Assembly: GCA_963704885.1 (NCBI GenBank)
Contig: CAVPIB010000004.1
Location: forward strand, 32,001 to 96,000
Reading direction: 5' to 3'
DNA length: 64,000 nucleotides
Source of the DNA: an uncultured Actinomycetes bacterium
Lineage (GTDB): Bacteria; Actinomycetota; UBA4738; HRBIN12
A model generated the notes under the pieces. The model searched no databases. It worked only from the letters and a program-made list of their open reading frames with translations, and was not told the origin of the DNA. Below are positions 1 to 52,905 of this stretch, in pieces. Both the position numbers and the translations under genes were made by a program. Positions within the stretch are counted from its first letter, which is position 1. Each line of letters opens with the position of its first letter.

Positions 1-204
1 GTGGCAGACCCGGCGAGCGACTACGCGGTCCGGATCCTCGACGCCCCCGACGGGTGGCGCGTGGCCATCGAGGACCCGACCGGCGCCGTCGTGTTGGAGC
101 GGGCGTGCCGCGATGGATCGGAGGCTCGGACGTTCGCGTCGACCGTTCGCCAGCACCTCTACTGGCTGTCACCCGAGAAGTTCCGTTCGTATTACCGGAT
201 CTGA
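1..204 (+). CDS. hypothetical protein (may be 5'-truncated by window edge)
   Basis: 67-aa ORF with GC-rich third positions; no motif recognised. Confidence 0.6.
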   Translation: MADPASDYAVRILDAPDGWRVAIEDPTGAVVLERACRDGSEARTFASTVRQHLYWLSPEKFRSYYRI

Positions 205-217
205 AGGAGACCCGAGC

Positions 218-325
218 ATGGGGTTCAACGCGATGCAACCCGGCAAGATCAAGCGGGGGGACCTGATCATGCTGGTGGTGGCAGTGGTCGTGGTGGTCGC
301 CCTCATCTTTTGGGCGGTCGGCTGA
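218..325 (+). CDS. small single-pass membrane protein (35 aa)
   Basis: AAGGAG RBS at 204-209, ATG 218; MGFNAMQPGKIKRGDLIMLVVAVVVVVALIFWAVG. Confidence 0.65.
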   Translation: MGFNAMQPGKIKRGDLIMLVVAVVVVVALIFWAVG

Positions 326-328
326 GGT

Positions 329-694
329 GTGCCCGAGCCTGGCGACCTGGACTTCGGCTATCTGACGACGACCGGGCGAGTCACCGGACGATCCCACGAG
401 ATCGAGATCTGGTTCGCCCTTCAGGATCGGACGGTGTACCTCTTGTCGGGCGGGCGAGACGGGAGCGACTGGGTGCAGAACCTGATCGCTTCCCCCTTGG
501 TCCAGTTCCGGATCGGGGACGTGACGTGCTCCACGACCGCGCGGGTGGTGGAGGCCGGGACGGACGAGGACGCCACGGCGCGGCAGCTGCTGGTCCACAA
601 GTACACGTCACGCGACCCGGACGATCTGGGCGAGTGGGGCCGGACGGCGCTCCCGGTCGCTATCGTGTGGGAGCCCGATCCTCCACTAGTCTGA
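329..694 (+). CDS. deazaflavin (F420)-dependent nitroreductase-like / split beta-barrel oxidoreductase
   Basis: YLTTTGRVTG...EIWF...SDWVQNL...P.V motifs typical of the DUF385/Ddn-like family. Confidence 0.7.
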   Translation: MPEPGDLDFGYLTTTGRVTGRSHEIEIWFALQDRTVYLLSGGRDGSDWVQNLIASPLVQFRIGDVTCSTTARVVEAGTDEDATARQLLVHKYTSRDPDDLGEWGRTALPVAIVWEPDPPLV

Positions 695-700
695 GTCAGA

Positions 701-988
701 CTAGCTTTCCTCGAACCCGATCGAGAACATCCTCTCCAGATCGTGCTTGGAATAGACCTGGAACGCGATCAACGTCTGCGTCCGATCGACGCCGTTCACT
801 TTGGAGATCCCGCCGGGGATGACCGTCGCGAGGCGGTCGTGGTCGCTCACTCGCACGATCGCGATGAGATCGAACTCGCCGGCGACGGAGTACACCTCGG
901 AGACGCCGTCGATGTCGGCGATCGCCTGGGCGGCCTCTGGGATCCCGTCGATCTCGCACTGGATCAGGACGACGGCATGCACGCTCAC
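701..988 (-). CDS. Lrp/AsnC ligand-binding domain protein
   Basis: GVSEVYSVAGEFDLIAIVRV and TQTLIAF, stand-alone RAM domain typical of actinobacteria. Confidence 0.85.
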   Translation of the reverse strand: MSVHAVVLIQCEIDGIPEAAQAIADIDGVSEVYSVAGEFDLIAIVRVSDHDRLATVIPGGISKVNGVDRTQTLIAFQVYSKHDLERMFSIGFEES

Positions 989-1001
989 GGTCTGGCTCCC
1001 T

Positions 1002-2178
1002 TCAATCGCGCTCGAGGACGACGGCCAGCCCCTGCCCGCCCGAGATGCAGAGCGTGGCCAGGCCGAGCGCCGCGCCGCGCGCGCGCATCTCGTAGGCGAG
1101 GCTGAGGACTATCCGAGCGCCGCTCATGCCGATCGGATGACCGACCGAGATGCCTCCGCCTCTCACGTTCAACCTGTCCCTGTCGAACTTCAGCTCGCGC
1201 TCGCAGGCGATGACCTGCGCCGCGAACGCCTCGTTGATCTCTATCACGTCGATGTCGGCGAGCGTCAACCCGGTCTTTTCCAGGACCTCCTTGGTGGCGG
1301 GCACCGGACCTATCCCCATGATCTCCGGCGGCACACCCGCCCAGGACATGCCGATGACGCGTGCGAGGGGTTCGCGTCCCTCCGCTCTCCGCGCGTGACT
1401 CGGAGATCAACACCATGGCCGCGGCTCCGTCGGTGATGCCGCTGGAGTTGCCCGCGGTGACGCTGCCACCTTGCCGGAAGACCGGCTCCAGCTTCGCCAA
1501 CTTCTCGAGTGTCGCGTCGGGCCTCGGATGTTCGTCCTGCGTCACGGTCACCGTCGATCCCTTGGGACCGGGTACGTCGACCGGGAACATCTCATCGGCG
1601 CGCGCGGCCGCCCCGGCGGCGGCTTTCTGCTGCGACTCGAGCGCGAACCCGTCCTGCTCCTCGCGAGTGATGTCGTACATGTCCACCAGGTTCTCGGCCG
1701 TCTCGCCCATGATCAGGCCGCACAGCGGGTCAAGCAGACCGTCGCGGTACATCCCGTCGACGACCTCGGCGTTGCCTAGCCGGTAGCCCAGACGCATCTG
1801 GGGGAGCAGGAACGGCACCCGAGTCATGTTCTCCATACCGCCGGCGAGGACGACCTCGCTGTCTCCGAGCATGATCTGCTGCGCGGCGAGCTGAACGGCC
1901 TTCATCCCCGAGCCGCATGCGATGTTGACGTTATAGGCGCTCACCTCGACCGGGATCCCGGCTCGAACGCTCACCTGCCGGCCGGTGTTCGGTCCGTTGC
2001 CGGCCTGGCGCGCGTGGCCCATGATCGTCTGATCGACCTGGTCGGGCTCGAGGTTCGAGCGACGCATCGCCTCGACAGCGGCCAGGGTCCCGAGCTCGAC
2101 CGTGGGGACGTCGGCGAACGACCCCAGGAACTTGCCGATGGGGGTCCGGGCGCCCTCCAGGATGACCGCGCGCTCCAT
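1002..2178 (-). CDS. acetyl-CoA acetyltransferase (thiolase), frameshifted near 1390
   Basis: N-part (VNIACGSG, TAGNSSGITDGAAA) in ORF 985..2178; C-part (EINEAFA, GHPIGMSG, CISGGQG) in ORF 1002..1349. Confidence 0.9.
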
Positions 2179-2223
2179 GCGACCCAGTCTATCGGGCGCC
2201 TTTTCCAGCCAGGTCCCTCGATC

Positions 2224-2814
2224 TCAGCTGAGGGGGGCGATCCCGGTCAGGATCGCCAGGTCCGCCGCCAACGTCTGCGGGTCGGTCGGGCCGTCGATCA
2301 TGGGGTTCATCGAGCCGTCCCCGAGTCCCCAGGCCATGATCTCGGCCGCCTGCTCGTATCCGCGAACGTCCCAGTCCGTGGCCGTGTCGTTCCAGCCGGT
2401 GAGGCGGCGGCTCTCCATGAACCGGGCCCGGGCCGCGTCCGTGAGGCGCTCGTCGCACCAGGCGTGGGCCAGCTCGTGGAGCACGATCCTCTGCGGTCCG
2501 GCCTCCATGTCCAGGCGCACGCAGAGGTCGATCCTGCCGTTCACCTGGTATCCGACGTTCCCGCGGCAGCCGTCCTTGCTCTCGTGGAAGTAGATGTCCA
2601 CGGAGGGCAGATCCAGGCCGGCTGCCCGGTAGCGCTTGATGGCCCATGTCAGGAGCTCTTCTTGAGCCGTGCCCGGGGTGTGGAGCACGATCGCCTCGGG
2701 GCCGGTGATCGGGGTGCCGTCCTGCTGGGGGGTCGTCCCCCCGAGGGAGAGGAGCGCGCTCAGGGCGATCGCGATGTGGAGGGCGGTCCGGGTGGCGTTC
2801 CGTGTCGTGTCCAT
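2224..2814 (-). CDS. secreted zinc metallopeptidase-like protein (HExxH)
   Basis: ATG 2814, hydrophobic signal peptide, IVLHELAHAW and downstream EQAAE third-ligand-like motif. Confidence 0.7.
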   Translation of the reverse strand: MDTTRNATRTALHIAIALSALLSLGGTTPQQDGTPITGPEAIVLHTPGTAQEELLTWAIKRYRAAGLDLPSVDIYFHESKDGCRGNVGYQVNGRIDLCVRLDMEAGPQRIVLHELAHAWCDERLTDAARARFMESRRLTGWNDTATDWDVRGYEQAAEIMAWGLGDGSMNPMIDGPTDPQTLAADLAILTGIAPLS

Positions 2815-2835
2815 GCGCGCAGATTGCGCCCGGCC

Positions 2836-2875
2836 CCTTGCACGCCAGTGACCCACCGCTGACAGGGCGCTGACA
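2836..2875 (-). promoter_or_regulatory. 11-bp-phased direct repeats, putative SARP/winged-helix binding site
   Basis: TGAC at 2849, 2860 and 2871; CGCTGACA exact at 2857 and 2868; degenerate fourth unit near 2836-2842, about 9 nt from a CAATCT -10-like hexamer (2826-2821). Confidence 0.6.
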
Positions 2876-2891
2876 CGTGATGTACGTCACA
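2876..2891. promoter_or_regulatory. CRP-family binding site
   Basis: CGTGA-TGTACG-TCACA matches YGTGA-N6-TCACR. Confidence 0.6.
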
Positions 2892-2946
2892 TCTGGCCTG
2901 CGAGGGAGCCGTTCCCGAACCTGGAGCGGTGGCGTAGGCTTCGCGC

Positions 2947-5900
2947 GTGGAATTCCGCGTCCTGGGGCCGGTGGAGGTGGACGGGCCGGACGGGCCGCTC
3001 ACCGTCGGTGGGCGCCGGCAACGGCTGGTGCTCGCCCACATGCTCCTCAGGGCCAACCAGCTAGTTGCGACCGAGGTACTGATAGACGAGATCTGGGATC
3101 AGGAGCCGCCCGACGGCGCCCGCAACGCGATCCAGGCCTACATCTCGCGCCTGCGCCACGTGGTCGGGGATCGGATCGAGGGCCGCGACGCGGGCTATCT
3201 CCTGCGGGTGGAGCCCGGCGAGCTCGACCTGGAGCGGTTCGAGGAGCTGGTTCGCGACGGCCGTGCGCTCGTCGACGCCGATCCCGCCGACGCGGCCGCC
3301 ACGCTCAAAGAGGCCCTCGGGATCTGGCGTGGCCCGGCGTTCGCCGACCTGGCGGATGAACGCTCGCTGGCCGGGGAGATCGTCCGGCTCACGGAGCTGC
3401 GATCGCTCGCCACCGAGGAGCGGATATCGGCGGAGCTCGCCATGGGGCGCCACAAGGAGCTGATCTCCGAGCTCGAGTCCCTGACGGCCGCCGACCCGCT
3501 GCGCGAGCGCCTCTGGGGGATGCTCATGCTGGCCCTCTACAGGTCGGGCCGCCAGGCGGATGCGTTGGCCGCATACGCACGCGCGCGCGACGTCCTCTCG
3601 GAGCAGCTCGGGATCGACCCCTCCAGGGGGCTGCAGCGGCTGCACGAGCGCGTCCTATCGCAAGATCCCGCGCTTTCCATGGCCTCGGCGCGGGCGCCCG
3701 TCGCGAACACCGACCCCTCTTCGTCGGGCGACCTGGCGCCCGGGACCCGGATCGGCGGCTACAAGATCCTGGAGGTCCTGGGGCGTGGGGGCATGAGCGT
3801 CGTCTACCTGGCGGAGCACGAGGGCCTGCGCCGGAAGGTCGCGTTGAAGCTCCTGGCGCCCCAGCTCTCGGCCGACGAGAGGTTCCAGGAACGGTTCGTG
3901 CGGGAGTCCCAGCTGGCGGCGAGCCTGGACCACCCCAACGTGATCCCGATCTATGAAGCGGGGGAGGCCGACGGGTACCTGTTCATAGCGATGCGCTACG
4001 TGGACGGGACCGATCTCCGCAAGCCGATACGCGCCACGGGAGCCCTGTCGACCGAGCGTACCCTGGCGATCCTCCGCCAGGTCGCGGCCGCTCTCGATGC
4101 CGCACATCGCCGCGGATTGGTTCATCGCGACGTCAAGCCGGGCAATGTGCTGGTCGCCCGCATGGAGACCCTGGAGGGCTCCGAGCAGGTCTACCTGTCG
4201 GACTTCGGGCTCACGAAGCGCGCGTCTTCGCTTTCCGGTGTGACGGGCACTGGGCAGTTCATCGGTACGCTCGACTACGCGGCGCCCGAGCAGTTCCAGG
4301 GACGGCGCCTCGACGCCCGGACCGACGTCTACTCGCTGGGCGCGATGCTGTTCGAGTGCCTCACCGGGCATCCTCCCTTCCGCCGTGAGAACGATGCCTC
4401 CTTGATGCACGCGCATCTGACGGAAACCCCTCCCGCGGTCACGGACGAGCGGGCTGAGCTCCCCGGCGCGATCGACACGGTCATCGCACGGGCTATGGCG
4501 AAGGATCCGACCGACCGCTATCAGACCGCGGGCGAACTGGCCGCCGACGCCGCCGATGCCCTCAAGCGCGAGACGGCCGGCGTCCTCCTCAGAACGTTCA
4601 TGATCGCCGACGTCCGCGGGTACACCACGTTCACGCAGGAGCAAGGGGACGAACGCGCCGCCGAGCTCGCCTCTCGGTTCGCGGAGATCGTGCGCCAGGT
4701 CGTGGCGGGGCACGGCGGCGTCCTGCTGGAACTCCGGGGGGACGAGGCCCTCACGGTCTTCGTCTCCGCTCGCCAGGCGATCCGAGCGGCCGTCCAGCTC
4801 CAGGCTGCCGTTCGGGACGCCGATCTGCCCCGAGGCGTAGGGATCGGGGTCGACGCCGGCGAGGCCGTCGCCGCGGAGGGCGGCTACCGCGGCGGGGCAT
4901 TGAACCTGGCAGCTCGCTTGTGCGCGAAGGCGGCCGCCGGCGAGGTTCTCGCCTCGGAGGCGGTCACCCACCTGGCGGCGCGCGTGGACGGGATCGCCTA
5001 CACGGATCTTCGGTCCTTCAACCTGAAGGGCTTCGACGAGCCCGTCCGAGCGGTGCGGGTGGTTCCCGAGGATCAGCTCGCCCGCGGCTCCGGAGCCGCC
5101 GGCGAAGGGTTGGCTCCCGCGGATCCGCAGACGGGTCCCTGTGGTCGCCGCGGGGGTCGTCGTGCTCGCCCTGGTCGCGCTCGGACTGCCGCGGATCCTG
5201 GGAGGTTCGTCCGAGGCGTCGACCACTTTCCGACCAGGGATCGCGATCATCGACCAGGAAACCCACGAACAGGTCGGACATGTCCCTGTTCAGGATCCGG
5301 TCGAAGGCTACTTCGCCGACGGATCGTTCTGGTTCCTCAACCTCGAACCGCTCTCCTTCGTTCAGATCGACGCGACCACGTTCCAGATCGTCCGCACCAT
5401 CTCCTCGCCCGTTACGCAGGTGCAGTCGTTCGCCGTCGACGGCGCGTCCCTTTGGGTGACGGACGCCTCGAACCCGGTGCTCGTTCGTATGGATATCCGG
5501 ACCGGCAGGGAGGCGGCCCGGTACAGCTACTCCGATCTCGGGGACGGGGGATTGTACGGACCCGCAGCCGGTGCGGGGTCGATCTGGACGGGCGTGGGCC
5601 GCAACCTCTTGCGTATCGATCCGGGGAACGGAGCCGTGCAGGCGAAGATCGTGCCCAAGTACACAGAATCCACGCCGGGAACGGTCCCGACGGGCGTCTT
5701 CTCGACCGCAGGCAACCTCTCGTTCAGCGACGGATACCTGTGGGTTCCGAGCGACGACAGACTCAACCGGATCGACCCTGCGACGAACGACCGTCGGCAT
5801 TCAAGGCGGGCGTGCCGACGCCGGTCAAGTTCGCCGTTGGGGGCGAGGGGTTCGGATGGGCCACGAGCGAGGCCGGGAACTCCGTCTACCAAGTGAGTCC

Positions 5901-7659
5901 TCGTGGCTACAAGATCGGCAGCTTCGAGACCGGCCAGGGCCCCGAATCCGTCGCGTTCGACGAAGGGAAGCTGTGGGTCGCCAACTACGACTCTGCTTCG
6001 GTGGGCTGGGTCGACGTGACCAACGGGAACACCGGTTCGATCACCGTCGGTCACCCCGTCCAGGGTATCGCGGCGGGGGCCGGGCTCGTCGCCTTCACGG
6101 TGGGTCGTGGCGTCGGAGTCGTCGACCGGATCGCGGCCATCCCAGGCGATGTCCTGCGGCTGACGTTCCCCACCGAGTTCAATCACGTCTATGATCCGGC
6201 GCTTGCCGTCGAGGACGGCATGTTCCAGGTCGAGCGCGCCACGTGCGTCAAACTCTTGAACGCACCTGTAGCCGCTGCACCTGAGGGGTGGGCCCTTCAA
6301 CCCGAGGTGGCGGAGTCCATGCCGGATGTGTCGGCGGACGGGCGCACGTACACGTTCCGGATCCGCGACGGGTTCCGGTTCTCGCCACCATCGGAGGAGC
6401 CCGTCACGGCGGAGACCTTCCGATACTCGATCGAACGCGCGTTGTCGCCCAACCTCGGTACGGGCACACCCGGGCCGCGACTGATCGACGACATCGAGGG
6501 TGTCGAGGACTTCCGTGCGGGACGTTCCGAGCACATCTCAGGGTTGGTGACGGCCGGCGATACGCTCACGATCACCCTGACCGAGCCGTCGGGCGACTTC
6601 CTCCAGCGCCTCGCCGCTCCCTACTTCTGCCCGGTCCCGACGGACACGCCGATCCTGGCCGGGGGGGTAGAGGGCGACATCGTTGCGTCGGCGGGGCCGT
6701 ACTACGCGACCGAGAACTCCCCTGGCGAGCTGCTCCTCCTTGAAGCGAACCCGAACTATGGCGGCAACCGTCAACCGGGGGTCGACGCGATCGCGATACG
6801 CACCGGCCTGGACGAGGGCGACGCGCTGTACCAGGTGGGGCAGGGTGATTCCGACGGATCCGTCGGTTCATTGGGGAGCCTGTTCTTTGGGGCCATCCGC
6901 GACGAGCCCGGCTTTCGCACGACGTCGCTCCCCGGTGTGACCGTGGTGGTGCTGAACGCGACCGGCCAGGTGTTCTCTGACCCGGGCGTTCGCGCAGCGT
7001 TCGCGACGGCATTCGATCGGTTCGTCGCCGCGTGGCTCTGGGGCATGCTGCCCACGGACGAACTGGTACCTCCCGACCTCGCTGGGGGGGAGCAGGACCC
7101 TTCCGCCACGCTCCCGGATCGGGAGGCAGCTAGGGAACTGATGCCGGATAGCGCCGGGGTCGTGAGGATCGCAGTTACAGCGTGCCAACACTGCCAGTCG
7201 ATCGCGATAGGTTCCACCGGGGATGCGGGGCTCGTGAACACCCTGCGGAGGCTCGGCCTCGGGTCATCCGTGGAACTCGTCAGCCGGCGGGAGATCTTGG
7301 CGCACCCGGACCGCTACGACATGGTGATCTGGTGGAACTTCCTCGACTACCAGGACACGGCGTCCTATGTAGCGGCCATGTTCGGCGATGTGGCGCCGGC
7401 CACGTGGTACCCCTCCGATCTCCGGTCGGAGGCCGATCGCGTGCTGGGGCTCGAGGGTGAGGCGAGGACGGCCGACGCGGTGGCGCTCGCCGAGCGGCTG
7501 ACCGCGGAGCACATCGTGATCCCGTACGCGCTCCTGGGCCGGTCCGAGCTCCTGGCCGATCGCGTCGGTTGCCGGGTGTATCCGCCGCTCGGATTCGGGG
7601 TGGATCTGGCCTCGCTCTGCATCACGGAGGTGTCGCCGTCGGCTTCCGCGTCGCCCTGA
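2947..7659 (+). CDS. multidomain signalling protein: SARP (wHTH+BTAD), Ser/Thr kinase, class III nucleotidyl cyclase, TM, beta-propeller, family-5 solute-binding domain; two compensating frameshifts (~5082, ~5790)
   Basis: MEFRVLGPVEV and PLRERLW...LALYRSGRQADAL (SARP); GRGGMS, HRDVKPGN, DFG, APE (kinase); ADVRGYT, GDE, NLAARL (cyclase); TM and propeller in +1 frame 5141..5790; SADGRTYTFRIRDG (SBP5). Confidence 0.85.
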   Translation: MEFRVLGPVEVDGPDGPLTVGGRRQRLVLAHMLLRANQLVATEVLIDEIWDQEPPDGARNAIQAYISRLRHVVGDRIEGRDAGYLLRVEPGELDLERFEELVRDGRALVDADPADAAATLKEALGIWRGPAFADLADERSLAGEIVRLTELRSLATEERISAELAMGRHKELISELESLTAADPLRERLWGMLMLALYRSGRQADALAAYARARDVLSEQLGIDPSRGLQRLHERVLSQDPALSMASARAPVANTDPSSSGDLAPGTRIGGYKILEVLGRGGMSVVYLAEHEGLRRKVALKLLAPQLSADERFQERFVRESQLAASLDHPNVIPIYEAGEADGYLFIAMRYVDGTDLRKPIRATGALSTERTLAILRQVAAALDAAHRRGLVHRDVKPGNVLVARMETLEGSEQVYLSDFGLTKRASSLSGVTGTGQFIGTLDYAAPEQFQGRRLDARTDVYSLGAMLFECLTGHPPFRRENDASLMHAHLTETPPAVTDERAELPGAIDTVIARAMAKDPTDRYQTAGELAADAADALKRETAGVLLRTFMIADVRGYTTFTQEQGDERAAELASRFAEIVRQVVAGHGGVLLELRGDEALTVFVSARQAIRAAVQLQAAVRDADLPRGVGIGVDAGEAVAAEGGYRGGALNLAARLCAKAAAGEVLASEAVTHLAARVDGIAYTDLRSFNLKGFDEPVRAVRVVPEDQLARGSGAAGEGLAPADPQTGPCGRRGGRRARPGRARTAADPGRFVRGVDHFPTRDRDHRPGNPRTGRTCPCSGSGRRLLRRRIVLVPQPRTALLRSDRRDHVPDRPHHLLARYAGAVVRRRRRVPLGDGRLEPGARSYGYPDRQGGGPVQLLRSRGRGIVRTRSRCGVDLDGRGPQPLAYRSGERSRAGEDRAQVHRIHAGNGPDGRLLDRRQPLVQRRIPVGSERRQTQPDRPCDERPSAFKAGVPTPVKFAVGGEGFGWATSEAGNSVYQVSPRGYKIGSFETGQGPESVAFDEGKLWVANYDSASVGWVDVTNGNTGSITVGHPVQGIAAGAGLVAFTVGRGVGVVDRIAAIPGDVLRLTFPTEFNHVYDPALAVEDGMFQVERATCVKLLNAPVAAAPEGWALQPEVAESMPDVSADGRTYTFRIRDGFRFSPPSEEPVTAETFRYSIERALSPNLGTGTPGPRLIDDIEGVEDFRAGRSEHISGLVTAGDTLTITLTEPSGDFLQRLAAPYFCPVPTDTPILAGGVEGDIVASAGPYYATENSPGELLLLEANPNYGGNRQPGVDAIAIRTGLDEGDALYQVGQGDSDGSVGSLGSLFFGAIRDEPGFRTTSLPGVTVVVLNATGQVFSDPGVRAAFATAFDRFVAAWLWGMLPTDELVPPDLAGGEQDPSATLPDREAARELMPDSAGVVRIAVTACQHCQSIAIGSTGDAGLVNTLRRLGLGSSVELVSRREILAHPDRYDMVIWWNFLDYQDTASYVAAMFGDVAPATWYPSDLRSEADRVLGLEGEARTADAVALAERLTAEHIVIPYALLGRSELLADRVGCRVYPPLGFGVDLASLCITEVSPSASASP

Positions 7660-8379
7660 CGGCATGCAAGAGCCATTCACGGGCTCCCCTGGAGCCGGTT
7701 ACGGGCGACGGCATGGTCGCCGCCACACTCCACGGCATCGATCCGACGCCGGCGATAGCCAGGTCCCGCGCTCGCAGGAGCGACGGCTCGTCGTCGGGTG
7801 CCGAGTCCAGGCCCAGCTCGAACATGGGCTTGACCAGCGCGATCAGATCGGCATCCGGTGCGAACGCCAAGTCCCTCGATCTGCGGCACTGCCGAGGCGA
7901 CCGACAGGTAGGACAGGTCCATGGTGATGACGTCGATCGTGTCTGAGTCGGACATGCGCGTCGCCGCGTCCGCCAGGTTCGTGCGTTCCAGGTTCACCAC
8001 GCGTTCGTGACTCCTGAGGTCACCGCGCAGCTGGCCATGTCCCACGTCCACCGCGTACACGCGACGGGCTCCACTGTCGATCAGGACGCGGGTGAATCCG
8101 CCGGCCGACGCGCCCAGGTCCACGCAGATGCGGTCCTCGACGTCGATCCCGAAGCCGTCCAGGGCGGCGGCTAGCTTGTCCTCGCCCCGAAGTCGCCGCG
8201 GAGGGCGGAAGACGACCGATGAATCGGTGCGAACGAGAGACCGGGGGTTGGTGACCACGCGTCCGTCGATCAGAACATGCCCCTCCAGGACCGCGCTCCG
8301 AGCGTCGGTGATGTCCGGACGCGAGATGGCCAGGTGCTCGAGCACGCCGCGGAACCTCCCGCGTGAATGTGGTTCCCAC
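7622..8379 (-). CDS. TlyA-family rRNA methyltransferase-like protein (S4 + FtsJ), frameshifted
   Basis: RGEDKLAAAL, CVDLGASAGGFT, DVGHGQL, DLSYLS, LVKPMFE; pieces in ORFs 7677..8534 and 7622..7870; probable leaderless GTG 8379 after TAGACT. Confidence 0.8.
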
Positions 8380-8388
8380 CGGCCGAGT

Positions 8389-10033
8389 CTAGGGCCGGCG
8401 GCGGGCGCCGACTCGATGGTCGTCGGACGTCCGGGCCTGGGACTGGATCCGCGCGATCGCGGCGCCGCCGTCGACCGGCTCGGCCAGACCAACCGTCGCT
8501 CCGTGCGACACGTGGCGCGTTGCTCCGCATCCAAGCGCGCACGGCGGCCAGCTCATCGGCGCGCTCGCGCGGGCACGGGCTGGAGATGGGCTCGGCCCCG
8601 TCATCGCGGATCAGCGACCCCGAGCTGAGCGTCGAGGGGCGACCGCCGACCTCGACCGTGAACGTCCCGCTCCCCGCGAGCCAGGAATCGGTGCGACTCC
8701 GCGCCAGGGCGTCGGCGAGGGCGCGGATGCGGTCACGTACCAGCCCCGCTTCCTCGTACCGCTCCTGGTCGGACAGCTCCGTCATGCGTCGCTCGAGCGC
8801 TCCGAGGAGCCCGCCCGGGGAGGTCAGGGAGGAGACGAGCCTCCGGACGAGCTCTCCGTAGCGCTCGGGATCGACGCGGCCGTCGCAGGGGGTCAGACAG
8901 CGGCCCATGTCGGCGAGGGCGCACGGCGCGAACCTCGTCCGTGCACCCATCGCCTTGGTGCACCGGCGGATGGGGAAGACCTCTTCGAGAGCTTCCTTCG
9001 CCAGACGTGCCCGGATCGTGTTGCCGAACGGCCCGACGTAGGTGCAGCCGTCGTCTGCCTTGGCAGCGTGAACGACCTTGATGCGCGGGAACGCTTCGGC
9101 GGGATCCACCTTGAGGTAGGTGTAGCGCCGCCAGGTCTTACCACGGCGGTTGTACTTCGGCTCGTGCTGACGGATCAGCCGAGCCTCCACGACCAGCGCC
9201 TCCAACTCCGACGCGCACCCGATGCCGTCGACGCCGGTGGTCTCGGCGAGCAGATCGGAGATCTTCTTGCGCTCGTCGCCGTAGAAGTAGGACTTCACGC
9301 GGCTCCGAACGTCCTTCGACTTCCCGACGTACAAGACTCCACCGTCCCGCCCGCGGAACAGGTAGACGCCCGGCGAGTTGGGCAGGTGATCAGCCAGCCG
9401 GATCTTGCCGTAGTTGGGACGGCCCCTGGCGCGGACGGCCTCTCGCAGGTCGCCCAGGGTCGAGATGCCGAGCCGGCCGCCCAGGTCCATCAGGCCATGG
9501 AGCACCTCCGCGCACGCCTCGGCGTCGGCCAGGGCACGGTGGTTGGGCTCCGACCGCGTCCGGAAGTAGCGGGCGAGCGTCTGGAGCTTGACGTTGGGCA
9601 CGTCGGGCCAGACGACGCGCCGCGCCAGACGGGCCGTGCACACGGGGGGCGGGGGGAGCGGTTCGTAGTCCAGGCGGACGAGGTTGGCGTTCAGGAACGA
9701 GAAGTCGAAGCGCGCGTTGTGAGCCACGAAGACCGAACCGCGGAAGAACTCCAGGAACGCTGGGAGGATCTCCTCGATCGGTGGTTCCTCGGCGACGGCT
9801 CGGGTGTCGATCCCGGTGAGATGGGTGATGAACGGAGGGATGGGGACCTCTGGGTCGACCAGCGCCTGGAACGATCCAAGTCGCTCGCCCGCTCGGTACT
9901 TGACCGCGCCGACCTCGGTGATGCGGCAGTCGGTCGGAGAGCCGCCCGTGGTTTCCAGATCCACGACGCAGAACGTGACCTGGTTCAAGGGCGTGCCCGA
10001 TTCGAGCGTGGTCTGGATGGGTGCCGCGAGCAC
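8389..10033 (-). CDS. DEDDh exonuclease-GIY-YIG/UvrC-like fusion (Rv2191-like), frameshift near C-terminus (~8510)
   Basis: VVDLETTG, AHNARFD, HRALADA, PGVYLF...LYVGKS, ERYEEAG; GGAGG RBS before GTG 10033. Confidence 0.9.
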
Positions 10034-10069
10034 GATCGCCTCCGTCGGGTGGGGCCGAGCGGAGTCCGC

Positions 10070-10098
10070 ACCATATCGAACAGGTGTTCGGGCGTCAA
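10070..10098 (-). promoter_or_regulatory. sigmaA-type promoter with LexA (SOS) box in the spacer
   Basis: TTGACG-N17-TATGGT on minus strand; TCGAAC-AGGT-GTTCGG at 10076-10091. Confidence 0.85.
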
Positions 10099-10111
10099 GC
10101 ATCGTGCCGCG

Positions 10112-20171: not shown

Positions 20172-20180
20172 AGCCGCGGG

Positions 20181-20210
20181 TTGAACAGCGGTTCAAACTC
20201 AGGGTATAAC
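20181..20210 (+). promoter_or_regulatory. promoter with palindromic operator over the -35
   Basis: TTGAAC-AGCG-GTTCAA (20181-20196); TATAAC at 20205-20210, 6 nt before GTG 20217. Confidence 0.6.
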
Positions 20211-20216
20211 CCAGCC

Positions 20217-21314
20217 GTGAGTGACCCGATCGGCACCGCGTTCCACGACGTCCAAGCGACGCGCGGCGCCACATTCATGGAGGAGGGCGGCTGGTACTGG
20301 ACGGAGTCTTTCGGCGACACCGAGAAGGAGTATCGAGCCGTCCGGGGGGGCGTCGGCATGTGGGATGTGTCGCCGCTCACCAAGTGGGAGCTGCGCGGAC
20401 CCGACGCCCTCGAGGCCGCCCAGCGCGTCCACTCGAACGATGTCTTGCGCATGGACGTCGGTCAGGTTCGATACGGCGCGGTACTGGACGAGGAGGGGCT
20501 GCTCGTAGACGACGGGACCGTGTTCAAGCTGGCCGAGGACCTGGTGTGGGTCATGACGAACGGTTCCGATCGCGAGGAGTACTTCGCCGAAGCCACGAAG
20601 GGGCTCGACGTGTCGGTCGACAACGTCACCCCATCGCTTCCCAACCTGCAGATCCAGGGGCCAGGTTCCCGAGAGCTGTTGTGTTCGATCACGGATGCCG
20701 ATGTCGATGCCCTGCGCTACTTCCGGTTCCTTCCGGAACAGGTCACCGTGGGTGGCGTCCCCGTGTGGCTCGCGCGCACCGGGTTCACGGGCGAGCTCGG
20801 GTTCGAGCTCTTCCTGCGGCCGGAGCACGCGGAGGCGCTCTGGGAGGCGGTGGAGGCGGCCGGGGCGACCCCATTCGGCGTCGACGTGATCGAGCCGCTG
20901 CGCGTGGAGACCGGGATGATCGTGACCGACTACGACTACGCACCGCATGAACGCTCGCCGTACGACCTGGGTCTGGATCGGGTCGTGGCGCTCGACGCGC
21001 CGGGCGAGTTCATGGGGAAGGACAGGCTGCGTGAGATCGCGGCGGATCCCCCCAACAGATTCAAGACGCTCAGGTTGGCCGGCGACAGGATCCCGGAGTA
21101 TGGGGCCACCGTCACGAAGGACGGCGAGCAGATCGGCGTCCTGACGAGCCCCGCGGTGAGCCCGCTGTATGGGCCGATCGGCCTGGCGATCCTGCGGACG
21201 GACGTAGCGCTGGACGGAACCACCGTGCAGGTCGCGCTGGACGGTGGCATGGTCCAAGCGACGGTCGACGTCCTGGCGATCCACGATCCGAAGAAGCGAC
21301 GGCCACGCGGCTGA
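20217..21314 (+). CDS. GcvT-family aminomethyltransferase/demethylase 1
   Basis: EYRAVR..VGMWDVS, DDGTVF, RTGFTGELGFE, LRVETG. Confidence 0.85.
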   Translation: MSDPIGTAFHDVQATRGATFMEEGGWYWTESFGDTEKEYRAVRGGVGMWDVSPLTKWELRGPDALEAAQRVHSNDVLRMDVGQVRYGAVLDEEGLLVDDGTVFKLAEDLVWVMTNGSDREEYFAEATKGLDVSVDNVTPSLPNLQIQGPGSRELLCSITDADVDALRYFRFLPEQVTVGGVPVWLARTGFTGELGFELFLRPEHAEALWEAVEAAGATPFGVDVIEPLRVETGMIVTDYDYAPHERSPYDLGLDRVVALDAPGEFMGKDRLREIAADPPNRFKTLRLAGDRIPEYGATVTKDGEQIGVLTSPAVSPLYGPIGLAILRTDVALDGTTVQVALDGGMVQATVDVLAIHDPKKRRPRG

Positions 21315-21348
21315 GCGCCGGCGGCCCCGAGATGCGAGGAGGAAGGAC

Positions 21349-22431
21349 GTGACCGAGGAGAATCGCTCGCCACTGCACGATTGGCACGTGGCTCATGACG
21401 GGGAGTTCCTGTGGGAGGACGGCTACCCGTGGATGATGCACGAGGGCCGTGACCCGCTCGAGGAGTACGAGGCCGTCCGCACCGCTACCGGCCTGTGGGA
21501 CCTCTTCTCCACATGCAAGTACGAGGTCACGGGACCCGACGCCGGCCGTCTGATCCAGCGCCGATTCACGAACAAGCTCGAGGGCATGGCCGACGGGTCC
21601 GTCCGGTATGGGGCGTTCGTCAACGCCGACGGATTGATGATCGACGACGGCAACGTGTACAAGCACGCCGCCGACAAGTACTGGGTCCTGATCAACTCGG
21701 CGGGGATCGACGAGTGGTTCCGCGAAACGGCCGGAGACCTCGACGCATCGATCGCCCACCGGACCAACGAGCTGGCCATGATCGCGGTACAGGGACCGAC
21801 GTCGCAGGCGACGTTGCAAGGGCTCACGGATCGAGACCTAGGTGACCTGCGGTACTTCCGCTTCTGGCCGGAGCAGACGAAAGTGGCCGGTCGTGACGCC
21901 TGGGTCCTTCGGACAGGCTTCTCCGGAGAGAAGGGATACGAGGTCGTGATGGCGCCCGAGGACGCGAACGTCGTCTGGGACGCGCTGATCTCGGCGGGGG
22001 GCGTTCCGTTCGGCCTGACGGCGATAGACCTGGCCCGTACCGAGGTCGGGCTGATAATCATCGCGGTCGACTACAACCCGAGCGAGATCTCCCCGTGGGA
22101 CCTCTCGATGGATCGGTTCATCAAGACCGATACCGAGTGCGTTGGGGCGGAAGCTCTGGCGGCCTATGGAGCCAACCCGCCTAGGCGATTCAAGTCGCTT
22201 CGCATCGAGAGCGAAACAGCACCTGAGTACGGTGCCGCCGTGACCAAGGACGGGAACGAGGTCGGGACGGTGACCTCGCCGGCCGCCTCGCCGCGTCTGG
22301 GGGCGATAGGCCTGGCCATCTTGGACGCGGACGCGGCGGTGGAGGGCGAGAAGGTCGAGGTCGGCGGTTCGGTTGCCACGGTCTCGACCCTCAGCCTCTA
22401 CGACCCGGAGAAGAAGCGCCCTCGCGCATAG
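21349..22431 (+). CDS. GcvT-family aminomethyltransferase/demethylase 2
   Basis: EYEAVR..TGLWDL, IDDGNV, RTGFSGEKGYE; GGAGGA RBS. Confidence 0.85.
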   Translation: MTEENRSPLHDWHVAHDGEFLWEDGYPWMMHEGRDPLEEYEAVRTATGLWDLFSTCKYEVTGPDAGRLIQRRFTNKLEGMADGSVRYGAFVNADGLMIDDGNVYKHAADKYWVLINSAGIDEWFRETAGDLDASIAHRTNELAMIAVQGPTSQATLQGLTDRDLGDLRYFRFWPEQTKVAGRDAWVLRTGFSGEKGYEVVMAPEDANVVWDALISAGGVPFGLTAIDLARTEVGLIIIAVDYNPSEISPWDLSMDRFIKTDTECVGAEALAAYGANPPRRFKSLRIESETAPEYGAAVTKDGNEVGTVTSPAASPRLGAIGLAILDADAAVEGEKVEVGGSVATVSTLSLYDPEKKRPRA

Positions 22432-22453
22432 CTCAGCCACGTATGCTCGCGCG

Positions 22454-23374
22454 GTGAGTCAGCCGCTCCTGGGTGTGGTGCCCAACTTCAGCGAAGGGCG
22501 ACGCACCCCGGTGATCGAGGAGATCGTCCGCGCCTTGCGGGTGCCCGGCGCTCGTGTCGTCTTCGCAGAGGCGGATCCGGATCACAACCGGTTGGACACG
22601 ACCGTCCTCGGATCGGCCGAAGCCGTGTTCGCGAGCGCCATGGCGGGCGCCGCCATGGCCGTGGAGTCGATCGACATGTTCACCCATACGGGCGGGCACC
22701 CCCGGATGGGTGCGGTCGACGTGATCCCCTTCATGCCCGTTCGCGACGCAACCATGGATGACTGCATCGACCTGGCCCGGCGGTTCGGGCAGGAGCTGGC
22801 GGAGAGGCTCGACCTCCCCGTCTACCTGTACGACCGGGCGGCACTCTCCCCCGAGAGAGCGTCGCTCGCCGACGTCAGGAAGGGTGAGTTCGAGGGACTG
22901 CGAGAGGCCGTGGCCCGTGGCGAGCGCCTGCCGGACTTCGGCCCGCCTGAGATCGGTCGTGCGGGCGCCACGGCGGTGGGAGCCCGCAAGCCTCTGGTGG
23001 CGTTCAACCTGTATCTAGATGGGACCGACGAGGAGGCCGCGAAGCGGATCGCGCGCGCCGTGCGCGAGTCGGGGGGCGGGCTGCCGGCCTTGCGGGCGAT
23101 CGGATTCGCGGTGCCTGAACGCGGCGGCATGGTGACCGTTTCGATGAACCTGGTCGACCACGACGTCACGAGTCTGCGGACGGCCTACGACGCGGTTGCC
23201 GCGGAGGCGCTGGCGGAGGATCTGCAGATCACCGAAAGCGAGATCGTGGGGTTGGTTCCCGCGGGCGCGCTCGACGACGGCGATATCGAGTACCTGCGAC
23301 TCTCGGGGTTCGACCCCGACGAGCAGATCTTGGAGCGACTGATCGAGCCGGTGGAGGAGGAACGAGCGAAGTGA
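22454..23374 (+). CDS. ftcD: glutamate formimidoyltransferase
   Basis: VPNFSEGR, DPDHNR, HPRMGAVDVIPF, VSMNL, ESEIVGLVP. Confidence 0.9.
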   Translation: MSQPLLGVVPNFSEGRRTPVIEEIVRALRVPGARVVFAEADPDHNRLDTTVLGSAEAVFASAMAGAAMAVESIDMFTHTGGHPRMGAVDVIPFMPVRDATMDDCIDLARRFGQELAERLDLPVYLYDRAALSPERASLADVRKGEFEGLREAVARGERLPDFGPPEIGRAGATAVGARKPLVAFNLYLDGTDEEAAKRIARAVRESGGGLPALRAIGFAVPERGGMVTVSMNLVDHDVTSLRTAYDAVAAEALAEDLQITESEIVGLVPAGALDDGDIEYLRLSGFDPDEQILERLIEPVEEERAK

Positions 23375-24012
23375 CGGACGAACGGTTGGGTGCCATGACG
23401 GTAGACGCGTTCCTGGAGGCGCTCGGCTCGAACGCGCCGACGCCCGGCGGGGGAGCAGCGGGTGCGATCTCGGCCGCGACCGGCGCCGCGCTGATCGCGA
23501 TGGTCGGGCGGCTCACGGTCGGGAAGGTCGGGTTCGAGGATGTCGACGAGCGGATGCGCGCGCTGGTCGAGCGGGCCGATGCGGCGCGGGCGGCGTTCCT
23601 CGATCTGGCGGATCGCGATGCCCACGCGTTCGACGGCGTGATGCTGGCGTTCAAGATGCCCAAGGGGACCGACGAAGAGAGGGCGGCACGATCCGCGGCG
23701 ATCCAGGCCGGATACGAGGCCGCGGCCTCCGTGCCCCTGGAGATCGCGAGCGCCGCCGTCGACCTGATGGAGCTGGCCGAGGACGCGACCGCGATGGGGA
23801 ATCCGCGGGCGGCCTCCGACGGCGTGTCCGGGTCGGCCCAGCTCTACTGCGCGACCCTCTGCGCGATCACGAACGTCGAGATCAACGCCGCATCGCTGAA
23901 GGATGAGGCTCGGCGAGGCGTGCTGCTCGACGAGGTCGCCACGTTGCGGGGCCGGGCCGATCAGTCGATCCGTGAGGCTCAGACGGCGTTCCAGCTACGG
24001 TTGTCATCCTGA
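23371..24012 (+). CDS. formiminotetrahydrofolate cyclodeaminase/cyclohydrolase family protein
   Basis: PTPGGGAA, MVGRLTVGK, GNP.AASD, NVEIN. Confidence 0.88.
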   Translation: MTDERLGAMTVDAFLEALGSNAPTPGGGAAGAISAATGAALIAMVGRLTVGKVGFEDVDERMRALVERADAARAAFLDLADRDAHAFDGVMLAFKMPKGTDEERAARSAAIQAGYEAAASVPLEIASAAVDLMELAEDATAMGNPRAASDGVSGSAQLYCATLCAITNVEINAASLKDEARRGVLLDEVATLRGRADQSIREAQTAFQLRLSS

Positions 24013-24021
24013 GCCGACGAC

Positions 24022-25692
24022 TCAGAACAGCCCGATCGTCCGACCGTCCTCGTCGATGTCGACGTTCATGAACGCGGGCGTCTTGCCCAAGCCGGGCATC
24101 CGTTGCATCTCACCACAGAGGGCGACCACGAAGCCTGCGCCGGCGGCCGGCACCAGGCTTCGTACCGGGAGGCGGAAGCCCGTGGGACGGTTGAGGAGAG
24201 ATGGGTCGTGCGACAGTGATAGGTGTGTCTTCGCCATACACACGGGCAGCGTCCCGAACCCCAGCGCGTCCATGCGGGCCAGGTCTTCCTCGGCCTGAGG
24301 CAGGAAGTCGACGCCTTCGGCGCCGTAGAGACGCGTCGCGATCGCTTCGACCTGCTCCCTCAACGAAGTTCCGTCAGGCGTCAGGAAGTCGAATTCGTTC
24401 TCCCGCTCGCAGGCTTCGACGACGGCGTCGGCCAGGTCGATGGCACCGTCACCACCACGGGCGAAGCCTCGGTTCACGACCACCGTCTCGGCGCCGGCAC
24501 CTTCCGCCAGCTCCTCGATCAGCGCGACCTCGGCCTCGGTGTCGCTGGGGAAGTTGTTGATCGACACGACACATGGCAGCCCGTACCGCTTCACGATGCT
24601 CACGTGCGCCGCCAGATTGTCGGCGCCTCGTCGCAGCGCGTCCAGATCCTCGATGGCGAGGTCGGTGAAGGCCAGCCCGCCGTGGGACTTGGTGGCCCGA
24701 ACGGTCGTGACCAGCACGGCAGCCGACGGTGTGAACCCGCCCACTCGGCAGACGATGTCGCAGAACTTCTGGAAGCCCAGGTCGCTCGCGAACCCGGCCT
24801 CCGTGACCACGTAGTCGGCGAGCTTCAACGCGACGCGATCCTCGATGATCGAGTTGTTCGCGTGCGCGATGTTGCCGAACGGACCTGCGTGGATCAGCAC
24901 CGGTTGCCCCTCCAGGGTCTGCACCAGGTTCGGCTTGATCGCGTCCTTCATGATCACGGTCATGGCGCCCGCCACGCGGAGGTCCTCGGCCGTGACGGGC
25001 CTGCCGCTCCGATCCTCCGCGACGACGATCCGCCCGAGACGGGCTCGGAGGTCCTGAAGACCGCTCGCCAACGCGAAGATCGCCATGATCTCAGACGCCG
25101 CCGTGATCACGAACTGGTTCTCGCGGGGCACCCCGTGAGCCTTCCCACCCAGGCCGACCATGGTGTACCGGAGCTCCCGATCGTTGACATCCAGGGTGCG
25201 GGGCCAAGTGATCGTCTCTACGTCGATGTCCAGCGGGTCTCCGTTGAAGATCGACGCGTCGAGGGCGGCGGCGAGCAGGTTGTGTGCGGCGGTCACCGCA
25301 TGGAAGTCGCCGTTGAAGTGCAGGTTGATCTCCTCCATCGGGACGACCTGTGCGTAGCCGCCGCCGTTGCCGCCGCCCTTGATGCCGAACACCGGCCCCA
25401 TCGACGGCTCACGCAGGCAGAGCATCACGTCCTTACCGATCTTGCCCAGTCCCTGGGTGAGCGAGACCGAGGTCGTCGTCTTCCCTTCGCCGGCTTTCGT
25501 CGGCGTGATCGCCGTCGTGATGATGAGCTTGCCGTCGGGTCGGTCCTTGAGCCGGTCGAGCACGGACAGATCAACCTTGGCGCGGTAGCGCCCGAACCGT
25601 TCGAGCTCATCCGTGGTGATCCCGGCCGAGTCCGCGATATCGGCGATAGGTCGAAGCGTCGCTTCCTGCGCGATCTCGAGTCCGCTCTTCAC
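24022..25692 (-). CDS. fhs: formate--tetrahydrofolate ligase
   Basis: TAITPTKAGEGKTT, GPVFGIKGG, HAGPFGNIAH, VTEAGF, CMAKT, MPGLGK; GAGGAG RBS before GTG 25692. Confidence 0.95.
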   Translation of the reverse strand: MKSGLEIAQEATLRPIADIADSAGITTDELERFGRYRAKVDLSVLDRLKDRPDGKLIITTAITPTKAGEGKTTTSVSLTQGLGKIGKDVMLCLREPSMGPVFGIKGGGNGGGYAQVVPMEEINLHFNGDFHAVTAAHNLLAAALDASIFNGDPLDIDVETITWPRTLDVNDRELRYTMVGLGGKAHGVPRENQFVITAASEIMAIFALASGLQDLRARLGRIVVAEDRSGRPVTAEDLRVAGAMTVIMKDAIKPNLVQTLEGQPVLIHAGPFGNIAHANNSIIEDRVALKLADYVVTEAGFASDLGFQKFCDIVCRVGGFTPSAAVLVTTVRATKSHGGLAFTDLAIEDLDALRRGADNLAAHVSIVKRYGLPCVVSINNFPSDTEAEVALIEELAEGAGAETVVVNRGFARGGDGAIDLADAVVEACERENEFDFLTPDGTSLREQVEAIATRLYGAEGVDFLPQAEEDLARMDALGFGTLPVCMAKTHLSLSHDPSLLNRPTGFRLPVRSLVPAAGAGFVVALCGEMQRMPGLGKTPAFMNVDIDEDGRTIGLF

Positions 25693-25906
25693 GTGGTTAC
25701 TCCTCGATGCGTCGGGTCGGAGCGCGAGGATACCGCCGATGGGCCTGGCCCGATCCGACGGAATGGACCTGAGCGCTGATCGCTCGACCAGGATCAAGAC
25801 GATCATCACGGCGGCGAGGACCGGCATCAAGCACACCCGCTCAAAGTGTCAGCGCCGAGCGTCACCGTCCGGTTCGTTCTGCGGCAAGCAGCGCTAGGCT
25901 GGACCC

Positions 25907-26743: not shown

Positions 26744-26830
26744 CCGGTCCCTCAGAAGCGTAGCGACGGTCCGGTCCGCGCATCCACGTAGAATCGCTCA
26801 CGAACCGACTTTCGGTCGGAAGGAGAGCCG

Positions 26831-28771: not shown

Positions 28772-28781
28772 CGGAGGTGTC

Positions 28782-40772: not shown

Positions 40773-40776
<4 letters not shown>
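39943..40776 (-). CDS. nfo: endonuclease IV
   Basis: IGAH, HAPYLVN, CLDTCH.FAAGY, HANDS, DRH..IG, LETP. Confidence 0.9.
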
Positions 40777-42656
<1,880 letters not shown>

Positions 42657-42733
42657 GGTCGACCTCCCTGGGGGAAGCGCTCAGGAGCACGGGAGCGCGT
42701 CCGTTGGCGATTCTACGGTGGGGAACAGGCGGG

Positions 42734-51421: not shown

Positions 51422-51446
51422 GGCGACAGTGTCTCGCGAACGCTCT

Positions 51447-51474
51447 TCAGGCGGGGCGGGGTCCGTGCCGATGC
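51447..51474 (+). promoter_or_regulatory. sigma28/WhiG-like promoter
   Basis: TCAG-N16-GCCGATGC, 15 nt before ATG 51490. Confidence 0.55.
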
Positions 51475-51489
51475 AGTCACAGAGAGAAG

Positions 51490-52152: not shown

Positions 52153-52176
52153 GCCCGCGGGGGTAGCCTTCCCGGG

Positions 52177-52848: not shown

Positions 52849-52870
52849 TCGGTTAACCGAGGGCGCCCGC

Positions 52871-52898: not shown

Positions 52899-52905
52899 TG
52901 GAGGC

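Follow-up and report, generated by a model that had tools for sequence, protein, structure and literature searches.

Within a 64,000-nucleotide stretch of the genome of an uncultured Actinomycetes bacterium (contig CAVPIB010000004.1, positions 32,001 to 96,000; this whole stretch is called the window throughout), a large gene at 2947-7659 stands divergent to a small gene for a secreted protein with an HExxH motif. We consider it probable that the large gene encodes one single-pass receptor, with its N-terminus inside and its C-terminus outside the cell, which controls the divergent gene through a SARP head of its own. The HExxH protein, predicted to be a zincin, is most likely the regulated output of that SARP. 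Domain order, topology signals, the conserved two-gene unit and the geometry of the repeats between the two genes are direct results of the computation. The window's own genome (G000) comprises 3.0 Mb in 20 contigs.

Domain architecture of the receptor

When its reading frame is corrected as described below, the receptor gene specifies in this order a SARP part made of a winged helix-turn-helix (wHTH) and BTAD, a Hanks kinase, a class III cyclase domain, one transmembrane (TM) helix, DUF6923 repeats and a family-5 solute-binding domain (SBP5) (Table 1). The OmpR-type winged helix that SARPs are expected to carry was found at residues 23-76 (Trans_reg_C, PF00486, 31.8 bits against a cut-off of 26.2), and BTAD was matched over its full profile length at residues 93-237 (PF03704, 160.4 bits against a cut-off of 22.1). 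All catalytic motifs of the kinase are present (K301, HRD at 393-395, DFG at 419-421 and APE at 446-448).

The cyclase domain gave no match to PF00211, neither in the whole receptor nor in 4540-5110, even at E <= 10. Searched against solved class III cyclases, it matched Ma1120 (E 4.6e-17, residues 20-174 of the searched piece) and Rv1264 (1.3e-5), with further PDB matches to 3mr7, 1ybt and CyaB. The metal-binding residues D555 and D599 and the transition-state residues N653 and R657 are all present in the window receptor, and this set of catalytic residues is kept in four of eight aligned domains (window, P0005, P0010 and L049) and lost in the other four (P0007, P0008, P0009 and L047, of which P0009 and L047 are near-identical). 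Aligned to Ma1120, the adenine-specifying Lys/Asp positions hold Glu (in LELRGD) and Gly, so the pair expected of an adenylate cyclase was not found. Glu at that base-specifying position is a mark of guanylate cyclases.

Basic residues (RIRRR) precede the TM helix, and by the positive-inside rule the N-terminus would lie inside and the C-terminus outside. On the predicted outer side, DUF6923 (PF21959) was matched at 5339-5593, in the piece read in frame 2 (30.9 bits; cut-off 27). The SBP5 domain covers positions 2-362 of the 368 of its profile (SBP_bac_5, PF00496, 120 bits against a cut-off of 32.4), and its nearest solved proteins are peptide binders (8upi, 9e-22; 2wok, 1.2e-16). Uninterrupted relatives of 1583-1602 amino acids (aa) carry the same chain in one frame (P0007 to P0010, L047 and L052). 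Together with the matches to Pfam and PDB they bear out the single polypeptide, and the order of its domains, that a first-pass annotation of this DNA had proposed.

Table 1. Positions of the features of the receptor gene, the HExxH gene and the region between them, in window coordinates.
Feature	Position	Strand	Remarks
HExxH protein gene, small, secreted, zincin-like	2224..2814	-	196 aa; signal-like hydrophobic N-terminus; HELAH
Putative -10 hexamer of the HExxH gene	2821..2826	-	CAATCT; 6 nt before ATG (2812-2814)
Four putative SARP boxes	2836..2875	-	heptamers spaced by 11 bp; exact 8-nt repeat at offset 11; register shared by 19 loci
Putative SARP box, heptamer unit	2869..2875	-	TGTCAGC (minus-strand reading)
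Putative SARP box, heptamer unit	2858..2864	-	TGTCAGC (minus-strand reading)
Putative SARP box, heptamer unit	2847..2853	-	GGTCACT (minus-strand reading)
Putative SARP box, heptamer unit	2836..2842	-	TGCAAGG (minus-strand reading)
Imperfect palindrome	2877..2890		GTGAYGNRNGTCAC; adjoins the distal repeat/SARP box; also in PD40-type loci L038, L039, L041, L044
Putative receptor promoter	2912..2940	+	TTCCCG-17 nt-TAGGCT; 6 nt to GTG at 2947
Receptor gene	2947..7659	+	one open frame of 1570 aa; ~1569 aa minus the three extra bases; start MEFRVLGP... agrees with relatives
SARP head	3013..3657	+	wHTH 3013-3174; BTAD 3223-3657
Hanks-type Ser/Thr kinase domain	3760..4524	+	residues 272-526; PF00069, 158.8 bits
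Class III cyclase homology domain	4597..5061	+	residues 551-705; phmmer against PDB sequences, family alignment
First frame break	5095..5101	+	one extra base (5098) relative to a related-strain contig; frame plot
Single TM helix	5135..5191	+	VPVVAAGVVVLALVALGLP; frame mod3=2; RIRRR before it
Extracellular propeller-like repeats	5230..6100	+	frame 2 to ~5790, then frame 1; continuous in relatives
Second frame break	5789..5796	+	two extra bases (5789 and 5795/5796)
SBP5, C-terminal ectodomain	6295..7386	+	residues 1117-1480

Reading frame of the receptor gene

The listing of open reading frames (ORFs) shows the receptor gene as one frame (mod3=1) without a stop until 7659. Its translation reads as normal protein from residue 1 to ~717 and from ~950 onward, while residues ~720-950 are rich in Arg and Pro, as out-of-frame reading of GC-rich DNA would give. 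A plot of the GC content at third codon positions (GC3) placed the coding phase in mod3=1 from 2947 to ~5100, in mod3=2 from ~5100 to 5800 and again in mod3=1 to 7659, and GC3 in the shifted frame stayed at 0.75-0.88. The frame-2 ORF at 5027-5893 encodes RIRRR, then 19 hydrophobic residues (5135-5191) and then propeller-like repeats, one of which crosses the second break and passes from frame 2 to frame 1 near 5790. The public protein record of the gene (P0004, 1570 aa) runs straight through the wrong frame for 230 codons. The absence of stops from this stretch is unremarkable: with 12 stops in that offset frame over the remaining 1337 codons of the gene, its chance is ~0.13.

The break sites were checked with contigs from four public sequencing runs, aligned to 4700-6200. 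The contigs that cross the sites represent related strains, 90-97% identical, from runs X1-X3 of one study; the best-matching public run contains only 0.21 of the words sampled. Base 5098 is missing in the single contig that spans the first break (1/1, run X2, with 27 other differences in 284 nt), and bases 5789 and 5795/5796 are missing in all three contigs that span the second (X1, X2 and X3, with 4-7 other differences each). Relative to the contigs the window thus carries one and two additional bases, which sum to three and regain the frame. When the extra bases were removed, the protein aligned well with its relatives at the second site. The first-pass annotation had postulated two compensating indels. 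Two frame changes are indeed needed to follow the GC3 plot; their sizes are +1 (~5098) and +2, not +1 and -1.

The closest relative, P0005 (82% identity), reads in a single frame through both break sites and has a frame break of its own further downstream. The receptor is not the only gene of the window with such a break. In the thiolase gene at 985-2223 (minus strand), Thiolase_N and Thiolase_C lie in different frames, with the break near 1395-1406, and a frame sweep of the window showed this as the one clearly split gene besides the receptor, together with several truncated profile matches. Because the thiolase in the same window is also frame-broken and P0005 reads through both sites, an assembly error is likely. 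We are rather confident that the breaks in the receptor are errors of the assembly consensus and that the gene is probably intact in the cell. Programmed frameshifting was considered and rejected, as there is no slippery site, the relatives are in frame and another gene of the window is broken too.

Next to the receptor gene, a TlyA-like ORF at 7677-8534 (minus strand) with only partial S4 and FtsJ matches overlaps by ~260 nt an ORF at 8270-10102 (minus strand) that encodes RNase_T exonuclease, GIY-YIG and UVR domains. This overlap may be another frame error.

A small secreted protein with a predicted zincin fold

The start of the HExxH gene is most likely the ATG at 2814, not the GTG at 2856: homologues share an M-D-T start that is followed by a hydrophobic stretch. 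An alignment of 32 family members showed H113, E114, H117, W119, C83 and E154 to be invariant and C98, Q155 and E158 to be nearly so. The HExxH motif, two cysteines and an RGxEQxAE block are invariant or almost invariant in the family.

No Pfam or NCBIfam family, PF07737 included, matched the HExxH protein above threshold; the best was Peptidase_M91 (E 0.018, 15.8 bits against 25). Family members are named "hypothetical" in every source. An AlphaFold2 model was obtained with a pLDDT of 87 and a pTM of 0.80. A Foldseek search of the model against the PDB returned nothing at E <= 0.001 (best E at least 0.017), its weak matches being mostly zinc peptidases. In the VIA structure search nearly all of the 50 matches listed were HExxH zinc peptidases with Z values of 6-9.2, among them the catalytic domain of lethal factor (9.2), ERAP1 (8.6), PPEP-3 (8.5), PPEP-2 (8.0) and thermolysin (7.2), and Z values of this size possibly reflect a common fold only. 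The nearest named Atlas cluster is ATLF-like (score 0.87). The profile of the family, run against 1.84 billion representatives, found 1583 clusters at E <= 0.001, of which 462 reach E <= 1e-30. Judged by its predicted fold, the protein is best read as a secreted zincin of small size that belongs to a separate family.

Some members of the family (P0194-P0200) measure ~350-420 aa and contain two stretches matching the profile each, i.e. they are tandem-doubled zincins.

Receptor and HExxH genes form a conserved pair

A profile search of 294 genomes of the class detected the HExxH family in 62 (the tally includes the unpublished genomes G125, G237, G192 and G042), often in several copies and with up to 9 matches per genome. 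We analyzed the neighborhoods of the best 30 HExxH loci, including 1.5 kb of flanking DNA. In 22 of these 30 the HExxH gene is accompanied by a divergent SARP(-kinase) gene; two of these cases are incomplete, as L023 runs into a contig end and the SARP match of L026 spans 69 residues only. Of the loci used, L011 alone derives from an unpublished genome (G125), and without it the divergent pairing amounts to 21/29. In one further locus (L034) the SARP-kinase gene stands in tandem with the HExxH gene. SARP-kinase and HExxH are also the sole two gene families common to all of 20 extended loci. The window's own genome holds a second divergent pair, in which an HExxH gene (C4:195287-195886, minus strand) faces a PD40-type SARP-kinase paralogue that begins at 195983. 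The divergent secreted partner pointed out in the first-pass annotation is thus conserved.

The receptors that occur in these pairs differ in their sensors. Among 14 complete partners, seven are SARP-kinase-nSTAND1-WD40 proteins, four are SARP-kinase-PD40 proteins, two carry SBP5 (L047 with 1584 aa and L052 with 1583 aa, the latter identical to P0008; each reads in a single frame) and one is a SARP-kinase-cyclase-nSTAND1-Bmp protein. The nSTAND1-WD40 module is normally cytoplasmic. As partner sensors differ across the HExxH loci, the SARP(-kinase) head appears as the constant element and the sensor as exchangeable. The two-gene unit is common in uncultured Actinomycetota, where it is unstudied.

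Direct repeats upstream of the HExxH gene resemble SARP sites

SARP sites are described as heptameric direct repeats which overlap the -35 region, with a classical unit of 11 bp, in the available text of PMC10972967. The intergenic region was compared across 19 divergent loci, none from unpublished genomes, with the HExxH start codon as the anchor of the alignment. In 12 of the 19 loci an exact direct repeat of at least 7 nt is present at offset 11, compared with 0-3 loci at each other offset from 5 to 25; with shuffled sequences the mean was 0.4 and the maximum 3. In all 19 loci the 11-nt units keep a single fixed register, in which the last unit starts at -28, 9 nt from the -10 element. A frequent pattern is an identical heptamer in units 1, 2 and 4, e.g. 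TCCAAG (L047, L049 and L052) or TTCCAGC/CTCCAGG (L038). Likewise, every one of the 19 loci has NANNNT at positions -12 to -7, which leaves exactly 6 nt to the HExxH start and implies that the transcripts are leaderless. Since the spacing between the repeats and the SARP start ranges from 81 to 116 nt across the loci, it is the HExxH promoter that the repeats belong to, and not that of the receptor. Taken together, the layout is most likely that of a classical SARP-activated promoter, with the repeats as putative binding sites and the HExxH gene as target. Heptamer type covaries with the residues of the recognition helix between subfamilies, a covariation that follows phylogeny and is not independent evidence.

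The first-pass annotation had named homologues without a conserved divergent partner or promoter motif, or real stops between the domains, as findings that would speak against such a system. None of these was found, and partner and motif are both conserved.

For the receptor itself, TANNNT is found 5-8 nt upstream of the start in 18/19 loci. The palindrome next to the distal box (Table 1) could be a site for a second regulator. A scan for E. coli-type promoters and terminators detected nothing in 2150-3050 or 7500-7900, and carries no weight because that consensus is unsuited to an actinobacterium of 68% GC.

The SARP-kinase fusion family

The receptor head (residues 1-720) was used as a query and matched 4811 proteins at E <= 0.001 among 8000 candidates scored, many of them by the kinase only. 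All 120 matches listed combine Trans_reg_C or BTAD with Pkinase. The tails that follow the head in these listed matches are DUF6923+SBP5 (~1410 aa, or ~1590 aa with the cyclase), TolB/PD40 propellers (~1160 aa), Bmp (~865 aa) and STAND/TPR. A survey of the phylum sampled 301 genomes (the unpublished ones in the tally being G029, G405, G338, G370, G503, G294, G542, G310 and G515), and matches spanning both SARP and kinase were sought among the 150 listed. They occurred in G000, G142, G185, G021 and G239, all of the window's family f1, and in G309; the other listed matches cover the kinase alone or the SARP alone. The SARP-kinase fusion is thus largely a speciality of the window's lineage; the fusion regulators form a large, unstudied family whose members come mainly from one class of uncultured Actinomycetota.

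An unusual relative, at L049 2227-6918 (minus strand), is a SARP-kinase-cyclase-nSTAND1-Bmp protein of 1564 aa which keeps the cyclase catalytic residues. The window's own genome also contains, at C2:7982-9129, SARP and kinase fragments in several frames and with stops; this is a decayed or mis-assembled copy of the SARP-kinase family.

We searched the literature for SARP-kinase fusion receptors and for the HExxH zincin family and found nothing on either, in a search with poor coverage of subscription journals. Within that scope, we agree with the first-pass annotation that no characterized system has the full architecture.

Proposed mechanism and its weighing

We propose the following sequence of events. 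A ligand, probably a peptide, would bind the SBP5/propeller ectodomain and thereby change receptor pairing. The altered pairing would allow trans-autophosphorylation of the kinase as well as assembly of the cyclase dimer. The kinase may then control the fused SARP in cis, as AfsK controls AfsR and PknH controls EmbR in trans; by analogy with AfsK, it more likely serves to regulate the SARP from within the chain than to provide an output of its own. The SARP would bind the heptamers spaced by 11 bp in the -35 region of the divergent leaderless promoter and recruit RNA polymerase to this promoter, which is without a -35 element, so that the zincin gene is switched on. On this view the output is the zincin. 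Its products could act back on the sensor where that sensor is SBP5, but such a peptide loop is not the conserved logic and cannot explain the STAND forms. More speculatively, coupled translation and insertion of both exported or membrane products could keep the locus near the tethered head.

Several points weigh against this proposal. SARP binding, leaderless starts, kinase activity and cis-phosphorylation are inferred in every member of the family, and a membrane-anchored activator has to reach its promoter while tethered. In the window, exact identity is restricted to the two distal heptamers; the proximal units match at 5/7 and ~3-4/7 positions. Among the 30 best HExxH loci, seven lack a SARP gene in divergent or tandem position within their 1.5-kb flanks; in L007, one of these seven, and in L026, a SARP-kinase-SBP5 gene lies tail to tail with the HExxH gene. 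Conversely, a third SARP-STAND-type gene of the window's genome (C4:958416-963413, minus strand, a frame of 1666 aa) has no HExxH neighbor. Two partners of the STAND form, at L046 2231-6406 (plus strand) and L051 882-5045 (minus strand), match only positions 1-144 of the 263 of the kinase profile. Their kinase domains are probably not active, and the kinase step is therefore not universal in the family. The contigs over the break sites prove an intact gene in the lineage only, and this strain may carry real frameshifts. Finally, the compared loci are relatives, mostly of family f1, and the best-scoring ones, so that the counts are not independent. The third SARP-STAND gene has CTTGCG-type repeats near its own start.

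Alternative explanations

If the frameshifts are real, the gene would be a pseudogene or would produce a non-functional protein in which an Arg-rich stretch replaces the TM helix and half of the propeller. The contigs over the breaks stem from related strains and not from that of the window, P0005 has its own downstream break and the genome contains a broken SARP-kinase copy at G000:C2:7982-9129, so a multi-copy family may shed copies in this way. Against this, the high GC3 of the shifted frame gives no sign of decay, the changes add up to a regained frame, related strains are in frame, and a break in a housekeeping thiolase fits an assembly error better; we regard real frameshifts as unlikely. 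A fusion could also be mimicked by three separate genes, for SARP-kinase-cyclase, TM-propeller and SBP5, given that there are three coding phases and that a GTG at 5141 could start the middle piece. We rejected this reading, which has next to nothing to commend it: frame 1 has no stop before 7659, RIRRR lies upstream of the only frame-2 start codon, a propeller repeat continues across the second break and six relatives are uninterrupted in one frame.

Two other explanations accept the intact receptor and assign the peptidase a different place. The first-pass annotation had it upstream, making the peptides that SBP5 senses, with transcription, phosphorylation and cyclic nucleotide as three parallel outputs. 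The peptide-binding relatives of SBP5, the zincin-like fold of the partner, and a window receptor that has its kinase motifs and its metal, Asn and Arg residues of the cyclase intact all agree with this, and the promoter evidence leaves room for a positive feedback loop. As a general logic it fails, since 12 of the 14 complete partners have no SBP5 and 7/14 carry the cytoplasmic STAND-WD40 sensor; three outputs at once are likewise at odds with the cyclases that have lost their residues and with the ~1410-aa forms, e.g. P0016, from which the cyclase domain is missing altogether. Moreover, it is the HExxH promoter with which the repeats keep register, so that the HExxH gene is a target. We therefore consider an upstream peptidase improbable. 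The zincin might instead have the receptor itself as its substrate. Trimming or shedding of the ectodomain could then work as a brake by feedback, or could be the initial cleavage in releasing the SARP-kinase part from the membrane. Some membrane-tethered activators are set free by proteolysis, zincin and ectodomain would both be extracellular, and the one-to-one pairing is tight in genomes with up to 9 HExxH matches. Pairing also extends, however, to receptors whose sole post-kinase module is the cytoplasmic STAND-WD40, out of reach of a secreted protease, and we give this possibility very little credence. The reading we prefer remains that of a receptor which controls the zincin gene through its SARP head.

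Comparison with known systems

Phosphorylation by AfsK is reported to raise the binding of AfsR to the afsS promoter in the available text of PMC10972967, and PknH is reported to phosphorylate EmbR in that of PMC1262709. The AfsK/AfsR-afsS system of Streptomyces coelicolor and the mycobacterial PknH/EmbR system share with the window's unit, as proposed here, a Hanks kinase that controls a SARP (wHTH+BTAD) and direct repeats at the target promoter. In contrast to both, the window protein unites kinase, SARP and sensor on one membrane-anchored chain, and its putative target is a secreted zincin gene and not afsS or the emb genes. It is not an orthologue of either partner according to the NCBIfam equivalogs (AfsR, 193.4 bits against a cut-off of 1430; AfsK, 102 against 1300). 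Nor does it belong to the TOMM kinase/cyclase fusions (TIGR03903, 150.4 bits against 705.75), of which it matches the kinase part alone.

One-component activators such as ToxR and CadC offer an analogy for the topology: they share the N-terminal OmpR-type wHTH, one TM helix, an outer C-terminal sensor and tethered DNA binding. The window receptor differs from them by ~640 residues of BTAD, kinase and cyclase between wHTH and TM helix, and by SARP-type heptamers every 11 bp. PimR, a SARP-LAL protein of Streptomyces natalensis, is described in the available text of PMC3367932 as having its SARP head fused to a region with homology to guanylate cyclases, and three heptamers with 4-nt spacers are given as its binding site in that of PMC10972967. 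Unlike the window receptor, PimR is soluble, has neither a kinase nor an outside sensor and continues into a LAL ATPase and an HTH.

Animal receptor guanylate cyclases of the natriuretic peptide type combine an ectodomain of binding-protein fold, one TM helix, a kinase-like domain and a dimerizing class III cyclase. The window chain has the opposite polarity, a kinase with all catalytic motifs and an added DNA-binding head. There is no common descent of the whole chains, and the comparison serves as an analogy for the dimer logic only. For the HExxH protein, the closest counterparts are the M34 peptidases, i.e. the Pro-Pro endopeptidases PPEP-1/2/3 and lethal-factor-type enzymes, with which it is predicted to share a small zincin fold of the HExxH-plus-Glu kind in ~190-215 aa; it differs from them in having no sequence-level match to PF07737.

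Other features of the window

Elsewhere in the window we noted a one-carbon/formate cluster at 20172-31621 (two GCV_T, formiminotransferase, cyclodeaminase, formate-tetrahydrofolate ligase, FdhD, and molybdopterin and NuoF-like subunits), a PknB-like kinase with PASTA domains at 40776-42680 (minus strand), three LuxR-type response regulators in tandem at 51247-53613 (plus strand) and a Tad/Flp pilus set at 54135-59457 (plus strand; RcpC, a CbiA/ParA-type ATPase, T2SSE and two T2SSF).

Implications

To our knowledge, signaling from a kinase to a SARP, as in AfsK/AfsR and PknH/EmbR, occurs only between separate proteins, mostly regulators of antibiotic or cell-wall genes. Here the AfsK/AfsR type of logic would be fused in one membrane-anchored chain, with exchangeable sensors and a dedicated, recognizable target promoter.

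A bolder extension, which we hold to be doubtful, is that a complete pathway on one chain has been multiplied into private circuits, in which each SARP-kinase receptor owns its sensor, its operator heptamer and its secreted zincin. In SBP5 forms, peptides set free outside the cell by the zincin would be sensed by the ectodomain, a self-amplifying loop for foraging or kin sensing, and the Glu/Gly cyclase would add a cGMP-type messenger. In that case no earlier bacterial receptor would have united ligand binding, Ser/Thr phosphorylation, cyclic-nucleotide synthesis and promoter binding on one membrane protein.

The unit may represent a compact natural "sensor to promoter" module with a predicted operator code, in which heptamer type goes with recognition helix, and it would offer a direct route to the question of how phosphorylation controls a SARP. 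It further gives two families without annotation a likely role: the SARP-kinase fusions and the small secreted zincin.

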